NCBI GenBank assembly: GCA_944358775.1
Contig: CALVRU010000001.1
Location: 3,888-67,887, forward strand
Direction of reading: 5' to 3'
DNA length: 64,000 nucleotides
From: an uncultured Bacilli bacterium
Lineage (GTDB): Bacteria; Bacillota_I; Bacilli_A; RF39; UBA660
In this document: positions 422 through 22,064 of the stretch, piece after piece
How positions within the stretch are numbered: the stretch's first letter is position 1
Layout of the letters: each line of letters begins with the position of its first letter
Position numbers and translations under genes: made by a program
Notes under the pieces: generated by a model
The model's input: only the letters and a program-made list of their open reading frames with translations
What the model was told of the DNA's origin: nothing
Databases searched by the model: none

Positions 422-3112
422 TCAGCGAGTAAGAAATGTCAAAATAATTCCAACTAAAATTAAGAAGGTTCCAATCACTCCCAATATTAAAAACCAAACC
501 TTTGCTTTTCCACTATAATTAAGCGCCATTGAAGGATTGGTAAACGCCGTTTTAACTCCAAGATTTCCTTTCGAAAAAGCACTCACCAAAGATAAATATT
601 CTCGATTTGACTGGCACGGATAACCTTGCAAAAGCTGTAACATTTTTTTCGTTTCTGGGTGACTTTGAAAATAACTACCCACCGTTTTACTCTGACATAA
701 TTCTTCATAAAGACGAACATTCTGATAAGATAAATTTAACTCGCGCATACCGAAAACAAGATAAGCACTAAACTTATTCTCTTCATCCAAATGAGACATG
801 CTTTGATACTGAAACTCTGCCATTGAAACATGATCGACAGCCTGTTGTAAACACTGTGAATCCATCACATAATGATCCATCAATTCAATTGCCCTATGTA
901 TCTGTCGTTTTTCGTTATCCGTCATTTTTTCCAATTCTGGATACAAGTAATAAAAATGTTTCTCAATATCAAATAATTTCATCTCTTCAAAAATAGTTCG
1001 TAAATATTCCTTACCCTCTTCTTTTAAAGAAAATAAATAACTACTCAACATAACTTTCAAAAAATCTTGATTTGGAAAGAATGTTTCGACAAAACTAGAA
1101 ATAGGAACAAACATCAAAATCTGAAAATATGCTTTCCACAAACAATATTCTTTCGCCCGCTCCATTTTCTCTATCTGTTCTTTTTTCGTCCCATGAAAAA
1201 AACCTTCAACTTGAATTTGCTTTAAACGTTCTTGAAAATTAAAAATAGGCAAATCACATAATTCACCCGCCAAAGTGACCGATGACGGAAACAACATACA
1301 TCCTAAAGCATAAGAAGATCGATATAACGTAAGAGCAACTTTAGCTAGCGTCTTCGCAAGAAAAATACAATAATTTTCCTTCGAGACAGATTTCTCTTGT
1401 ACCAAGAAAGAAAGAGAAATAAAATCATCCGCTTGCAAATAGGCAAGATCCGAAATACGAAGACAAGACTGTACTTTACGAATCTGTTGTGCAAACTGAA
1501 TTCCCATCGGATACTTCTCATCAAAATGACGAATTAACTCTTGTGAAACGACATTCTTTAAAGAAATACGATTTAAATAATCCTTCATCAACTCTTGACG
1601 ATATGGTAACTGGAACTTTTCTAATATGGAATATGGAAATTCAGTTACCGATATTATCTCAGGGAACAAATGTTCCGGATCAGATAAACGACGATATACC
1701 GCCTCTTCTTTACTTAATTCATCGAGAAAACAAGCGCCTCGAAATCGTAAAGAAAAATGCGATGCTTGTAATGGATAACATTTTCGATCATTTCCCATAA
1801 AAGAAATAGAACCTTTCGAAGAGACCGTTCGATCGATTCCCTTAATCTGAAAAAAGTTCCCTTCCTCATCCATATAAAAGGCACTACGATCGACACTCCG
1901 TGTAAAAAAGCCTAATTGAAAAATATGCTGATTCAATGTTTGATTAACTTGTTCACACCATAATTCATAAGAAGAAAGAGAATTCGTCGATGGCAAACAG
2001 ATTGGTCGAAAAGTATAAATACCATTTTCCAAAAATAAATCGCCTGGAATAAACAAAGACTTCATCACAAATCGATTGATCAAAATCTGTTTCTCGTAAA
2101 TCGCTCGAATTTCAGGAACTGGAAAATGACTACTAATTTTCTCTTCCCCATCGAGCCATTCCAAAAAAGTAGTATACTCTTGAAAATCGATATCCCGATA
2201 GCAAATCAATCGATAAAATTCATAACACGTTGGCAAAGAATTTAATAATCCTTGCGCCTCCTTTTGCTGACAAAATGCTTGTTTCTTCATTTCGAAAGCA
2301 ATGGTCTGGTCCTCTTTTTCTGTAAGATCACGACTAATTTTTAAATTGTAAAAAGCTCGTTTTCGCAAATCGAAAACCTGACTCAATACATCTTGATCTG
2401 ATTTAGAAAGTTCACTTGTTAACTTCGGAAAAGACATCTCATTCGAAAACAATAATAACAAGCGCGTATAAACCGATTTTTCCAACATTGCTAAAGAAGA
2501 AAACTCGTAGATTCCAACAAAAGGAGTTAACATCGATTCAAAATAATACCATTTCTGGTTTTTTTGAAACGCCAAAAAATAATGAAAACAGTTACTATCT
2601 TTGGCAAAATCAAAATAATACTTACGAACTTCATAGCCCTTTGCACGCAAAAAACAAGAAGCTAACTCGACGATTTCAAAAGGTAGTGCCAATTTTTCTT
2701 TTAATACTTGAAACAAACTCCTTTTTTTAAAGTATTTTTGAATCAAATAATTACTAGTCATTACAAAAGGATTCGCATCATCCTGCAACTCTTTTGGAAT
2801 CATCTGATACATTTCTTTGAGATAACGAACGATCTGTGGATTTTGATAGTTACAATTCACATTTTTGCGATAAGAATGAATCCCATACGGAATAAAATGA
2901 TTGCGATATCGAAATCCATATTCAAACGTTTGTAAATAAGCGAGCAATTCTTCTTCCGAATGAATTCCAAAAGAAGCATACTGTTCTAAAATCTCATCTT
3001 GACTATACTCTTTCTCATTCACATCATCGATCAATTCAATATTCATAGATTCTTTTGCTTCTTGAAAAGAAGGTAACAATATATCATCGAGACTTTCAAT
3101 TTGTGTCTTCAT
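422..3112 (-). CDS. large hypothetical protein (896 aa), cytoplasmic with single C-terminal TM anchor (tail-anchored); no recognisable catalytic motifs
   Basis: Long uninterrupted ORF. Own promoter (TGnTATAAT extended -10 at 3138-3146) and AAAGGAGGG RBS. C-terminal hydrophobic helix WFLILGVIGTFLILVGIILTF. Confidence 0.7.
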   Translation of the reverse strand: MKTQIESLDDILLPSFQEAKESMNIELIDDVNEKEYSQDEILEQYASFGIHSEEELLAYLQTFEYGFRYRNHFIPYGIHSYRKNVNCNYQNPQIVRYLKEMYQMIPKELQDDANPFVMTSNYLIQKYFKKRSLFQVLKEKLALPFEIVELASCFLRAKGYEVRKYYFDFAKDSNCFHYFLAFQKNQKWYYFESMLTPFVGIYEFSSLAMLEKSVYTRLLLLFSNEMSFPKLTSELSKSDQDVLSQVFDLRKRAFYNLKISRDLTEKEDQTIAFEMKKQAFCQQKEAQGLLNSLPTCYEFYRLICYRDIDFQEYTTFLEWLDGEEKISSHFPVPEIRAIYEKQILINRFVMKSLFIPGDLFLENGIYTFRPICLPSTNSLSSYELWCEQVNQTLNQHIFQLGFFTRSVDRSAFYMDEEGNFFQIKGIDRTVSSKGSISFMGNDRKCYPLQASHFSLRFRGACFLDELSKEEAVYRRLSDPEHLFPEIISVTEFPYSILEKFQLPYRQELMKDYLNRISLKNVVSQELIRHFDEKYPMGIQFAQQIRKVQSCLRISDLAYLQADDFISLSFLVQEKSVSKENYCIFLAKTLAKVALTLYRSSYALGCMLFPSSVTLAGELCDLPIFNFQERLKQIQVEGFFHGTKKEQIEKMERAKEYCLWKAYFQILMFVPISSFVETFFPNQDFLKVMLSSYLFSLKEEGKEYLRTIFEEMKLFDIEKHFYYLYPELEKMTDNEKRQIHRAIELMDHYVMDSQCLQQAVDHVSMAEFQYQSMSHLDEENKFSAYLVFGMRELNLSYQNVRLYEELCQSKTVGSYFQSHPETKKMLQLLQGYPCQSNREYLSLVSAFSKGNLGVKTAFTNPSMALNYSGKAKVWFLILGVIGTFLILVGIILTFLTR

Positions 3113-3274: not shown

Positions 3275-5861
<2,587 letters not shown>

Positions 5862-11921: not shown

Positions 11922-13103
11922 TTATTGATAAAGTCGTCCATTTAACTGTATAGCATCAATAATAACATATCCAGAATCTCCCAATACTTGAATTCCCAAA
12001 TATCGATTTCCTGTTACATTTGTGATGTCTAACGTCATACTAACATATTTTCCATTCTCCGACGTAACTTGTTTAAAACCACTTGTATAATGAACCCACG
12101 CAGAGGTAGTAGAATTAACAGCCGCAGAAATAGTAGCCGAATTTTGCACGCCAATTCCAATATAGATAGATGCATAGTGAGTTAAATCCATATTTAAATT
12201 GCGCCACGCATCTTGTCTACTTCGACCAGGAAGATCAAAACGTAAAGTAGTACCATCAGACCATGAACGAAATGGACACTCACGAACATCATAATTACCT
12301 TTAACCCATGTTCCAATTCCAACTTGATTCACCCATAATATTTTTTTGCTCTCATAAAGCCATTTCGGTCGTACTGTCACTCCATAGTCAGGCATCGTGA
12401 ACGTTTTTTGTGAAGAAGATAACGTAGTTAAAACTTCCTTTGTTTCGGTATTTGTAACCGTTGCCCCATAGTAACTAAATCCACTATTCGGAGTATTCGT
12501 AAGGGTGATCACTTCACCTGGCTTCGCAGATGCAACCGTCGTGGTTTTTCCACCAGTAACACTATCAACAAAAATTGGCAATGTCGATGGATATGCCTCA
12601 TCGATGCGAATTTGATTCGGTGAAAGAATCAACTCTTTATCTACCAAACCACCTTGTACTCCAATCGTCAGATTTCCACTCTTTCCACTACGATTTTGAA
12701 TTACCAAAGTAACGGTTACGTTTCCATTCGGATCTATATTTCCATACGGAAGAGAACCCTCTTCTTGATAATACACAGTAATATCGATAGAATTCGGATC
12801 CAAATAATATAACTGCCATGAACTTGTAAGTAAGTTGTTCGCTTGAATCGAAATCGGAAATTCAGAAATCTCCTGTTCCGTAAAAGAAAGTGTCATTTCA
12901 TTTTCATACTGCTCGTTTAACACGTAGTCAAAACGAACGGCCGCTAAACTAAGTACATTTTCTTTTTCAGTAGAAATCGTATAAAAAGCGTAGCTATAAC
13001 TGCCAATTAAAAGAAGTACCCCAAAAAGAAGAGTTACGATGATCACAGATAATCGTACTCTTTTCTTTAAGAAATGAAATACTTTTTTCGCTTTCTCCTT
13101 CAT
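11922..13103 (-). CDS. hypothetical secreted/surface protein (393 aa) with SipW-cognate-like signal peptide (IGSYSYAFYTISTEKE); expression apparently phase-variable
   Basis: Basic N-terminus plus hydrophobic helix plus SYAFY motif, the same signal type as the 49-52 kb cluster. Many NxS/T sites. Inserted between rpoC and rpsL with its own promoter. Confidence 0.65.
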   Translation of the reverse strand: MKEKAKKVFHFLKKRVRLSVIIVTLLFGVLLLIGSYSYAFYTISTEKENVLSLAAVRFDYVLNEQYENEMTLSFTEQEISEFPISIQANNLLTSSWQLYYLDPNSIDITVYYQEEGSLPYGNIDPNGNVTVTLVIQNRSGKSGNLTIGVQGGLVDKELILSPNQIRIDEAYPSTLPIFVDSVTGGKTTTVASAKPGEVITLTNTPNSGFSYYGATVTNTETKEVLTTLSSSQKTFTMPDYGVTVRPKWLYESKKILWVNQVGIGTWVKGNYDVRECPFRSWSDGTTLRFDLPGRSRQDAWRNLNMDLTHYASIYIGIGVQNSATISAAVNSTTSAWVHYTSGFKQVTSENGKYVSMTLDITNVTGNRYLGIQVLGDSGYVIIDAIQLNGRLYQ

Positions 13104-13130: not shown

Positions 13131-13161
13131 ATTATACCCCCCCCCCAAGTGATTTTTGCAA
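13131..13161 (-). promoter_or_regulatory. promoter with (G)10 homopolymer in the -35/-10 spacer (TTGCAA at 13156-13161; spacer 19 nt incl. G10 at 13137-13146; TATAAT at 13131-13136), a candidate slipped-strand phase-variation switch
   Basis: Read on minus strand: ttgcaaaaatcacttgggggggggggtataat, then gagg RBS and ATG at 13103. This is the only G/C homopolymer of 6 or more in the 64-kb window. Confidence 0.65.
13137..13146. repeat. homopolymeric C10/G10 tract
   Basis: cccccccccc on the plus strand, unique in an AT-rich window. Confidence 0.95.
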
Positions 13162-13174
13162 GGAAAAATAGTCA

Positions 13175-13201
13175 CAAAAAAAAGATGGCCTAAAACCATC
13201 T
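13175..13201 (-). terminator. rho-independent terminator of the 60-aa prepilin-like ORF
   Basis: Minus-strand hairpin agatggttttaggccatct followed by tttttttt, directly after the TAA at 13202-13204. Confidence 0.7.
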
Positions 13202-13384
13202 TTAGCGGACAATATAATTAACGACTGCACCCCCAGACGGAAGCGGTGTACGAACGGGTTCATCCGATCCATCAATTCCCATGTTATGAGCTTGAATAAC
13301 GATAATGATAATCGCAATCGCAAAAATACAAAGTAACAAAATCATTTCGCCTAAACCCCAGCCACGTTCATTCAACTTTCTCAT
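13202..13384 (-). CDS. small protein (60 aa) with prepilin-like class III signal-peptide-like N-terminus (MRKLNERG/WGLGEMILLLCIFAIAIIIIVIQA)
   Basis: Own extended -10 promoter, AAGGAG RBS 7 nt upstream of the ATG, and own terminator. Short basic leader ending in G, Glu at +5, then a 20-residue hydrophobic stretch (compare GFTLIEM of ComGC/pseudopilins). Confidence 0.55.
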   Translation of the reverse strand: MRKLNERGWGLGEMILLLCIFAIAIIIIVIQAHNMGIDGSDEPVRTPLPSGGAVVNYIVR

Positions 13385-13401: not shown

Positions 13402-13426
13402 AAGCATTATAACATATTTTATGCCA
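13402..13426 (-). promoter_or_regulatory. extended -10 promoter (TGtTATAAT) for the 60-aa ORF
   Basis: Minus strand ttggcataaaatatgttataat located between the rpoC terminator and the AAGGAG RBS. Confidence 0.55.
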
Positions 13427-21521: not shown

Positions 21522-22064
21522 CTAATCAACAGTAATTGCTTCGATCTTTAAAACGACACCATTTTGATTATACGTATATACTTCTCCCTTCGTAGAATCA
21601 CTACCGACAACAGTAACTTCTACGTTGCCAGCTTCCGTTGTTTTAATACTCGTAATTCTACTAGCACTACTATTGTAACCACTAAAAATCTTTTGATTAC
21701 CTAAAAATAATGCCCATTTATCATTGCTATTCGTTGTTACCGCCGGTGCATATTCAATATAAGTTTTTTTATCATTCAGATTAATCTTATAACATTGACT
21801 TCTCGTAGTATCCGTAATCGTAATATCCGTATACACTTGATCCGTACCACAAGCATTATAGGCAGTAAGATCTTCATTATCTTCAATAATTGGTGTTGGT
21901 GTAGGTATTACTTCATCATTATTGTTTTCTGAATAATTTCCATTTTGTTCAGATAAGTAAAAATACATTCCCAATGCACCAAGTAGAAAAAAGATAATTG
22001 CAATCATACAAGCCAAAATAACCGTTCCTTTAAATTGTTGGCTGACTTCTTTTTTATTGGCCAT
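21522..22064 (-). CDS. hypothetical membrane-anchored/secreted protein (180 aa), possible SipW-type signal (LGALGMYFYLSEQ)
   Basis: N-terminal basic region plus TM/signal helix. Thr/Ser/Asn-rich extracellular part. Own promoter after the rplL terminator. Sits between rplL and ybxB. Confidence 0.6.
   Translation of the reverse strand: MANKKEVSQQFKGTVILACMIAIIFFLLGALGMYFYLSEQNGNYSENNNDEVIPTPTPIIEDNEDLTAYNACGTDQVYTDITITDTTRSQCYKINLNDKKTYIEYAPAVTTNSNDKWALFLGNQKIFSGYNSSASRITSIKTTEAGNVEVTVVGSDSTKGEVYTYNQNGVVLKIEAITVD

Follow-up and report, generated by a model that had tools for sequence, protein, structure and literature searches.

A poly-G tract in a promoter spacer as a candidate phase-variation switch for a predicted secreted protein of uncultured gut Bacilli

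Homopolymer switches in promoter spacers are classical, and the kind of element considered here is already known. The fetA gene of Neisseria meningitidis has a homopolymeric tract in its promoter and is grouped with porA and opc, and the vlp genes of Mycoplasma hyorhinis, a multigene family of variable surface lipoproteins, carry a poly(A) tract in the promoter spacer. To our knowledge, almost everything established about repeat-driven phase variation comes from cultured pathogens (Neisseria, Haemophilus, Campylobacter, Helicobacter, Bordetella, and Mycoplasma). In porA, 9-11 G residues lie between the -35 and -10 hexamers and set expression in a graded (volume-control) manner, with 11G giving high, 10G about 2-fold lower, and 9G 6-13-fold lower expression, which allows immune escape (PMC3639595); the poly-C promoter of opc is cited in another paper (PMC5084427). 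In pil1 of Streptococcus gallolyticus, a logic based on a GCAGA-repeat-dependent leader peptide and a premature terminator has been demonstrated (Danne et al. 2014, PMC3894217). In this study, we analyzed a stretch of 64,000 nucleotides (nt; hereafter the window) from an uncultured Bacilli bacterium (GenBank assembly GCA_944358775.1, contig CALVRU010000001.1, positions 3,888 to 67,887), in which a run of ten G residues (G10) occupies the promoter spacer of a gene for a 393-amino-acid (aa) predicted secreted or surface protein.

The locus resembles porA of N. meningitidis in having a poly-G tract of 9-11 nt between the two hexamers, at the promoter of a variable and presumably surface-located protein and with a strain-dependent length; the switch proposed here is, however, a candidate one. 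It differs from porA, opc, and fetA in its host, a low-GC (guanine-cytosine) gut commensal of the Bacilli with peptidoglycan genes rather than a Gram-negative pathogen. It further differs from porA in that the tract abuts the -10 hexamer, the alleles span spacers of 17-20 nt, and the loci lie inside the rpoBC-rpsL and ftsQ-ftsA regions. The vlp system is comparable as a low-GC, small-genome lineage related to Bacillota, with a multigene family, a promoter homopolymer for each gene, and both phase and size/sequence variation. However, the tract is poly-G in our case, the proteins are unrelated and lack a lipobox, and the gene copies are dispersed rather than clustered.

We put the probability at roughly 65% that the G10 tract is a slippage-driven on/low/off contingency element in the promoter of a variable surface or secreted protein gene. 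In the proposed mechanism, slipped-strand mispairing during replication would add or remove G residues, and the change in number would alter the distance and the helical phasing between TTGCAA and TATAAT, the hexamers of a predicted sigma-A-type promoter. G8 and G9 (spacers of 17-18 nt) would be the expressing states, whereas expression would be weak with G10 (19 nt, as in the window) and nearly off with G11 (20 nt). A lineage would switch the protein on, low, or off stochastically and heritably, presumably at some rate within its populations, and recombination would separately exchange a ligand-binding-like C-terminal domain between alleles.

Read directly on the minus strand, the promoter region is tatttttccTTGCAAaaatcacttGGGGGGGGGGTATAATgatttatagagaatAAGTGAGGtcattATG, that is, TTGCAA-AAATCACTT-G10-TATAAT followed by a Shine-Dalgarno (SD) sequence and the ATG, with 19 nt between the -35 and -10 hexamers and the tract directly adjoining the latter (Table 1). 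This is the layout that an earlier note on this DNA had described (TTGCAA, spacer, G10, TATAAT, ribosome-binding site (RBS), and ATG at 13103, with a 19-nt spacer). Its statement that the tract is the sole G/C homopolymer of at least 6 nt in 64 kb was likewise borne out by a homopolymer census, in which G10 was the only G/C run longer than 5 nt (GC content of 35.4%) and the 12 other runs were all exactly C5; under a first-order Markov model, about 0.007 runs of at least 10 nt are expected in 64 kb. Thus, a homopolymer of at least about 8 nt lies between recognisable -35 and -10 hexamers, as in contingency loci of the porA/opc/vlp type. The TTGCAA/TATAAT pair was missing from a consensus promoter scan because that scan admits spacers of 16-18 nt only. 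No alternative -35 hexamer was found for G10 at a spacer of 16-18 nt, the best candidates matching TTGACA at no more than 3 of 6 positions. In the 33 nt from the tract to the ATG, neither a terminator nor significant structure was detected by the terminator scan and folding, and no second copy of the cassette or paralogue was found elsewhere in the 64-kb window. From this anatomy, we infer the transcription start site of the gene to belong to this promoter. An intrinsic terminator lies directly upstream and the leader is only 27 nt long; therefore, the 393-aa gene should depend on the poly-G promoter.

Independent assemblies were found by exact-protein look-ups of the 393-aa protein, its close homologues, and the 60-aa protein encoded upstream of it, and a tract table was built by regular expression over 14 independent same-species assemblies and the window, covering two loci. 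Including the window, the tract was G9 in 3 cases, G10 in 6, G11 in 3, and interrupted in 3, with spacers of 17, 18, 19, and 20 nt. The 17-nt spacer consists of G9 after an 8-nt prefix AAACCCTT (L010). Spacers of 18 nt were formed by G9 in L009 (L072 also has G9, on a contig that begins inside the spacer) and by the interrupted tract GGGGGAGGG in L011. A 19-nt spacer was found with G10 in the window, L007, L008, L071, and L080 (L003 also has G10, its contig again beginning inside the spacer), with the interrupted tract GGGGGGGTGG in L013, and with GGGGGGAGGG, also interrupted, at the second locus in L079, where the -35 hexamer is TTGTAA. The 20-nt spacer with G11 was found in L005, L014, and L015.

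The surroundings of the tract were far more uniform. TTGCAA was kept in 13 of the 14 related assemblies (all except L079), TATAAT was invariant, the 5' untranslated region (5'UTR) was conserved in all strains, and the rpoC/60-aa flank was 99.2-99.6% identical to the window. A polymorphic tract between conserved flanks among close strains is the pattern of a contingency locus. In addition, the length differed within groups of alleles whose proteins are 96-99% identical: group A included G10, G9, and two interrupted forms, and group B included G11, G10, G10, and G9. Therefore, the tract evolves more rapidly than the sequence around it. Interruption is characteristic of 'locked' contingency loci. 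The comparison of tract length among related strains, one of the checks proposed in the earlier note, was thus positive, with G9, G10, G11, and interrupted forms in 14 assemblies and with hexamers and 5'UTR conserved. Together with the upstream terminator and a 17-nt promoter in homologues (see below), this length polymorphism among strains supports the candidate phase-variation reading that the note had put forward.

Several observations concern the assemblies themselves. An 84-kb metagenome scaffold of the European Nucleotide Archive (ENA) contains a segment identical to the window. Logan contigs (5' ends of L003, L004, L006, L008, L072, and L073) often begin at or inside the tract; such breaks are compatible with within-sample heterogeneity and equally with sequencing difficulty, and were not counted as evidence. 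An apparent 'G20' in L002 (L002:1-105), where A12 G20 adjoins low-complexity junk, was rejected as a contig-end artefact. A scan of JGI metagenomes with the whole promoter and a variable gap gave no match, which suggests that the collection lacks this species.

The promoter assignment is also consistent with homologues in other species. The closest of these (L019, L021, and L022; about 30% identity) have at the same position a terminator and then TTGAAA-17 nt-TAAAAT/TAGAAT without poly-G, and their 5'UTR resembles that of the window (..atagag..gtga..ATG). By this comparison, the window promoter looks like the same promoter with a G-run filling the -10-proximal half of its spacer. Additionally, a second locus in the same species carries the cassette TTGCAAaaatcactt-G10-TATAAT-5'UTR upstream of a 568-571-aa paralogue, between ftsQ/divIB and ftsA-ftsZ (Table 1). 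The N-terminal 43% of this paralogue is 92-94% identical to the window protein, and the similarity to the window locus starts at the -35 hexamer; therefore, promoter, tract, and N-terminal module travel together. A terminator-like hairpin, identified by eye, precedes the second-locus cassette as well.

Poly-G tracts were also associated with this protein family outside the species. The relatives entered the databases as metagenome-assembled genomes (MAGs) labelled 'uncultured Bacilli', 'uncultured Tenericutes', and Candidatus Onthousia (Bacilli incertae sedis). When genomes were scanned with the family alignment, 52 loci were obtained, some MAGs having several, with a best match of 32% identity and without the window's own species. 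These loci are related sequences and counts among them are not independent; their 504 kb contained 33 G-runs of at least 7 nt and no C-run of that length. All of these G-runs except two (L025 and L042) were just upstream of the matched family gene and on its sense strand, and further loci carried interrupted tracts. In about 30 homologues (L028-L070, e.g., L058:5790-5945, L029:5880-6000, and L064:5836-6000; also L074-L078), a tract of G7-G11 lies, downstream of a promoter, inside a conserved leader of about 130 nt, which consists in order of a strong RBS AGAAAGAAGG, a short open reading frame (ORF) through the tract, a hairpin, an invariant block TTACTTTCTTTCATTAT, an intrinsic terminator, the SD, and the ATG. 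The leader ORF reads, for example, MRKINTSTRLQYVTWGGAV up to its stop codon, with a C-terminal form ..LQYVTWGGAV before the stop.

The position of this stop codon depends on the frame: it falls about 40 nt upstream of the intrinsic terminator with G9, about 30 nt upstream with G7 or G10, and 1-8 nt inside the 5' arm of the terminator with G8 or G11. The layout was found in about 27 of 30 elements, and the distance from tract to stem varies between 39 and 58 nt. The block TTACTTTCTTTCATTAT, about 25-45 nt downstream of the tract, is complementary to ATAATGAAAGGAGTAA containing the main-gene SD (-24..+3 of the ATG) and can form a duplex of up to 16 bp with it; the mean energy of this anti-SD duplex was -13.5 kcal/mol, whereas the mean with shuffled SD regions was -7.9. 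In the relatives, both termination and translation initiation may thus be controlled. In our reading, only the G8/G11 frame would take the leader ribosome through the anti-SD block into the terminator and turn the gene on, and most copies in the related MAGs, being G9 or G10, would be OFF, in keeping with a multigene family. The relatives resemble pil1 in having a leader ORF with a strong RBS through the repeat and one frame (G8/G11) that ends inside the 5' arm of the terminator, and they differ from it in the mononucleotide G repeat and the additional invariant anti-SD block. RNAalifold paired the poly-G of the relatives with CUUUCUUU, in a G.U-rich and weak (-5 kcal/mol) helix without covariation. 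Rfam, searched at permissive E-values with the window region and the leader of one relative, gave no credible family. A metagenome scan for the relatives' element returned 5 loci, G8 once and G9 four times, too few for a length distribution. In a rabbit-gut MAG (L050:114-121), a homologue has ..cataaatc-G8- 14 nt upstream of TATAAT, so that the tract covers the expected -35 position, and a 5'UTR like that of the window; L050 may represent an intermediate layout.

A broader interpretation, which we offer tentatively and rate somewhat below an even chance, is that a whole lineage of uncultured, small-genome gut Bacilli (Ca. Onthousia and relatives) has a large family of secreted or surface proteins under poly-G contingency control, with two kinds of switch. 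One would act through the promoter spacer, in the species of the window, and the other through the frame of a leader peptide that melts an anti-SD helix and a terminator, in the relatives. The promoter, the tract, and the N-terminal module would then form a portable expression cassette, placed in the housekeeping operons rpoBC-rpsL and ftsQ-ftsA and combined with exchangeable ligand-binding C-terminal domains.

Several points weigh against a length-dependent promoter in the window. The -35 hexamer TTGCAA matches only 4/6 of the consensus, and the -10 hexamer lacks a TG extension. Spacers of 19-20 nt predominate among the natural alleles, and a plain G8 does not occur, so either most populations are 'off/low' or the RNA polymerase of this organism tolerates longer spacers than assumed. 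Read-through from the promoter of the 60-aa gene could add transcription independent of the tract. Moreover, homopolymer lengths are not fully reliable in short-read metagenome assemblies, and the T-run of the terminator differs too (T8 in most strains, T9 in L005 and L011), which means that other homopolymers also vary at a lower rate or are mis-assembled. The main rival explanation draws on some of the same facts. It holds that the tract is mutable but a functionally neutral leftover, for instance from the leader element of the relatives, and that the promoter and start site lie elsewhere or read-through dominates. The nominally poor spacers of most alleles would agree with this, interruptions in 3 of 14 tracts could reflect decay, translation of the 60-aa gene, whose stop codon overlaps the terminator stem, might weaken the terminator, and TTGCAAAAATCACTT-Gn in the window resembles TTTACAATATGTTACCT-Gn of the relatives. 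Nevertheless, a homopolymer of 10 nt in DNA of 35% GC is expected to erode, yet it is kept at 9-11 nt. The tract is flanked by conserved hexamers at two loci and in four allele classes, including one with an almost unrelated coding sequence, the L010 prefix is 1 nt shorter and gives exactly 17 nt with its G9, and the hairpin seen by eye before the second-locus cassette repeats the terminator arrangement. We therefore regard a neutral tract as unlikely, although it deserves more weight than the explanations that follow.

The tract could instead be a recognition or structural element, such as a protein-binding site or a G-rich DNA or RNA structure affecting promoter melting, whose exact length matters little. 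The G-run is indeed conserved across the gene family in two sequence contexts, and RNAalifold pairs it with the invariant CUUUCUUU block in the relatives; however, this pairing is the weak one described above, the window has no partner pyrimidine block downstream, and a length that varies freely (G7-G11) with interruptions at different positions is unlike a binding site, which makes this explanation improbable. Attenuation of the pil1 type, in which the window tract would shift the frame of a leader ORF controlling a terminator or anti-SD helix rather than promoter spacing, is suggested by the layout of about 27 of the 30 homologous loci in related MAGs and by the frame through the tract, which reads ..LQKSLGGGV before its stop, like ..LQYVTWGGAV in the relatives. 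Yet such an ORF would lack both an RBS and an ATG in the window: its sole start is a TTG that lies 63 codons upstream, within the 60-aa gene but in another frame. In addition, a stop codon precedes the SD in each of the three frames, the terminator is upstream and not downstream of the tract, and the 33 nt from tract to ATG are unstructured. In contrast to pil1, the window thus has neither a leader ORF start nor a terminator between tract and gene, and the leader-ORF reading of its tract, very improbable on these grounds, was rejected. Finally, an artefact of sequencing or assembly (two-colour poly-G calls or a chimeric join) might be suspected from the A12 G20 end of L002 with its low-complexity junk and from the Logan contigs that break at or inside the tract. 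This explanation is effectively refuted, as the tract lies inside contigs of 84, 74, 35, 27, and 26 kb, more than 10 samples, which come from different studies and were assembled with different programs, share identical unique flanks on either side, and the same flanks enclose G9-G11.

The product of the gene controlled by the candidate promoter consists of an N-terminal signal/anchor helix, a beta domain (residues 56-170), a region like Flg_new_2/InlB B-repeats (179-248), and a C-terminal beta jelly roll. Its sole Pfam match was Flg_new_2 (PF18998, a divergent InlB B-repeat; residues 179-248, E=1.9e-6). Nine sequences were used to build an AlphaFold2 model (mean predicted local distance difference test (pLDDT) score of 83), in which a long helix at the N-terminus precedes three beta domains, and Foldseek against PDB aligned the C-terminal part to jelly-roll carbohydrate-binding modules (CBM11, CBM22, and CBM27), with a target template-modelling (TM) score of about 0.5 over about 170 residues and low identity. 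In the alignment, a motif ..G-x-Y/F-S-Y-A followed by F/M-F/Y-T is invariant across the family (..GSYSYA-FYT.. in the window), and its SYA-F junction would fit a signal-peptidase site. Judging from sequence and model, it is reasonable to predict a secreted or surface protein. The target named in the earlier note therefore remains plausible, given the N-terminal helix, the beta domains, and the hypervariable CBM-like C-terminus. Its 'SipW-type' label, by contrast, is unsupported: neither the SipW-cognate signal model of NCBIfam nor the TasA/camelysin model of Pfam matched the 393-aa protein at E<=1, which leaves a motif-level resemblance. Like the SipW-dependent proteins TasA and camelysin, the protein has an N-terminal hydrophobic segment, a motif ..YA before F/Y-T/S.., and an all-beta mature part; it differs from them in lacking any such signal-model or family match, with Flg_new_2 as its only one, and no search was made for a SipW gene.

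Sequence variation in the gene was concentrated in the C-terminal domain. Between L001 and L005 (positions 3450-4200), the 3' two-thirds of the gene were 63-83% identical at the nucleotide level, with flanks of 99-100%, and 40-60% of the columns were variable from alignment column 241 onward. Therefore, the CBM-like domain is the hypervariable part. The alleles were assigned to group A (the window, L009, L011, L013, and L006), group B (L014, L007, L008, L072, and L073), and group C (L005), and L010 carries a very divergent allele with an almost unrelated coding sequence. In the alignment, protein P0005 looks mosaic: it matches P0004 over residues 160-200, and its C-terminal part matches P0002/P0003.

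An insertion sequence (IS) of about 1.25 kb was found between the terminator and the -35 hexamer in L010 (2725-3976), L016, L017, and L018. It encodes HTH_Tnp_1 and rve transposase ORFs in the opposite orientation, and its left junction occupies at least 3 different positions among strains (about 2720-2735 in L016, L017, and L018). In L010 and L007 (1-32), the right end abuts TTGCAA, and the poly-G promoter downstream is undamaged. Such repeated insertion into about 25 bp is consistent with fluctuating selection or with an insertion hot spot.

In view of the known systems, the novelty lies in the host, an uncultured, wall-bearing, low-GC member of the gut Bacilli known only from metagenomes, and in the embedding of the loci in housekeeping operons. 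Three layers of variation are stacked at one locus and visible in public assemblies, namely tract length, exchange of the C-terminal domain, and recurrent IS insertion, and, in sister species, this protein family carries poly-G in an attenuator layout resembling that of pil1. If true, the version of the relatives with leader ORF, anti-SD block, and terminator would be a second natural case of phase-variable attenuation of the pil1 type, based on a mononucleotide. That poly-G accompanies one protein family throughout the lineage suggests host- or phage-driven selection on the proteins, and the locus offers a concrete read-level marker for within-host switching of a commensal. In practical terms, such tracts break or corrupt short-read assemblies and fragment MAGs exactly at these genes, which probably explains why the species-representative genome did not return the locus.

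Table 1. Coordinates of the features at the poly-G locus (positions in the window unless an assembly is named)
Feature	Position	Strand	Basis or remark
-35 hexamer TTGCAA	13161-13156	minus	4/6 match to TTGACA
Non-repeat part of spacer, AAATCACTT, 9 nt	13155-13147	minus	sequence; strain comparison
Poly-G tract, G10 (C10 on plus strand)	13146-13137	minus	sequence; homopolymer census
-10 hexamer TATAAT	13136-13131	minus	6/6 match; invariant in all related assemblies
5'UTR, 27 nt, with SD AAGTGAGG at 13116-13109	13130-13104	minus	sequence; folding z -0.2
ATG of 393-aa gene	13103	minus	ORF listing
393-aa gene	11922..13103	minus	ORF listing
Hypervariable C-terminal domain, residues ~255-393	11925..12341	minus	L001 vs L005 sliding identity; alignment columns
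Intrinsic terminator, 10-bp stem AAAGATGGTT/GGCCATCTTT and T8 tail (13173-13180)	13173..13203	minus	terminator scan; minimum free energy -10.2 kcal/mol, z -2.4
60-aa ORF, MRKLNERG-WGLGEMILLL..., one hydrophobic helix	13202..13384	minus	ORF listing
Putative extended -10 promoter TGtTATAAT of 60-aa gene, after rpoC terminator	13406..13414	minus	read from sequence
Second-locus copy, G10	L071:1443-3207
Second-locus copy, G10	L080:342-2115
Second-locus copy, TTGTAA, GGGGGGAGGG	L079:156-1920

On the minus strand, the gene order is rpoB (20707-17084), rpoC (17084-13452), the 60-aa ORF, the terminator, the poly-G promoter, the 393-aa gene, rpsL, rpsG, fusA, and tuf. The rpoBC-rpsL-fusA-tuf region is among the most conserved gene strings of bacteria; the two lineage-specific genes, for the 60-aa and 393-aa proteins, therefore sit inside a highly conserved string. 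The identical 60-aa protein was indexed in 267 blocks of a public assembly collection, and thus the species of the window is common. By eye, the 60-aa ORF has a prepilin-like G-W-G-L-G-E motif, with a presumed cut after G, Glu at +5, and a hydrophobic stretch next; searches against Pfam and NCBIfam, including the N_methyl hidden Markov model, gave no match, and the prepilin label could not be confirmed. Its C-terminal end PSGGAVVNYIVR is encoded across a G5(T) run, and the TAA stop codon extends into the start of the terminator stem. At both ends (MRKLN... and ...SGGAV.., over a G5/G7 run), this ORF is similar to the relatives' leader peptides (MRKIN...WGGAV before the stop); speculatively, it may be a frozen relative of that leader element or a small membrane protein. 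A pairing of TATAATGA with TCATTATG in the read-through transcript was rejected as not significant (z -1.1), and the pairing segment is altered in most other strains, with GGTAGTTATG in place of GGTCATTATG.

Elsewhere in the window, an 896-aa ORF (422-3112, minus strand) with a C-terminal hydrophobic anchor (..WFLILGVIGTFLILVGIILTFLTR before the stop) adjoins eno and murD and had no Pfam match at E<=1e-5, and a 180-aa ORF (21522-22064, minus strand) with an N-terminal transmembrane helix had no Pfam match. The window also encodes homologues of murD and femAB, which point to a cell wall in this organism.

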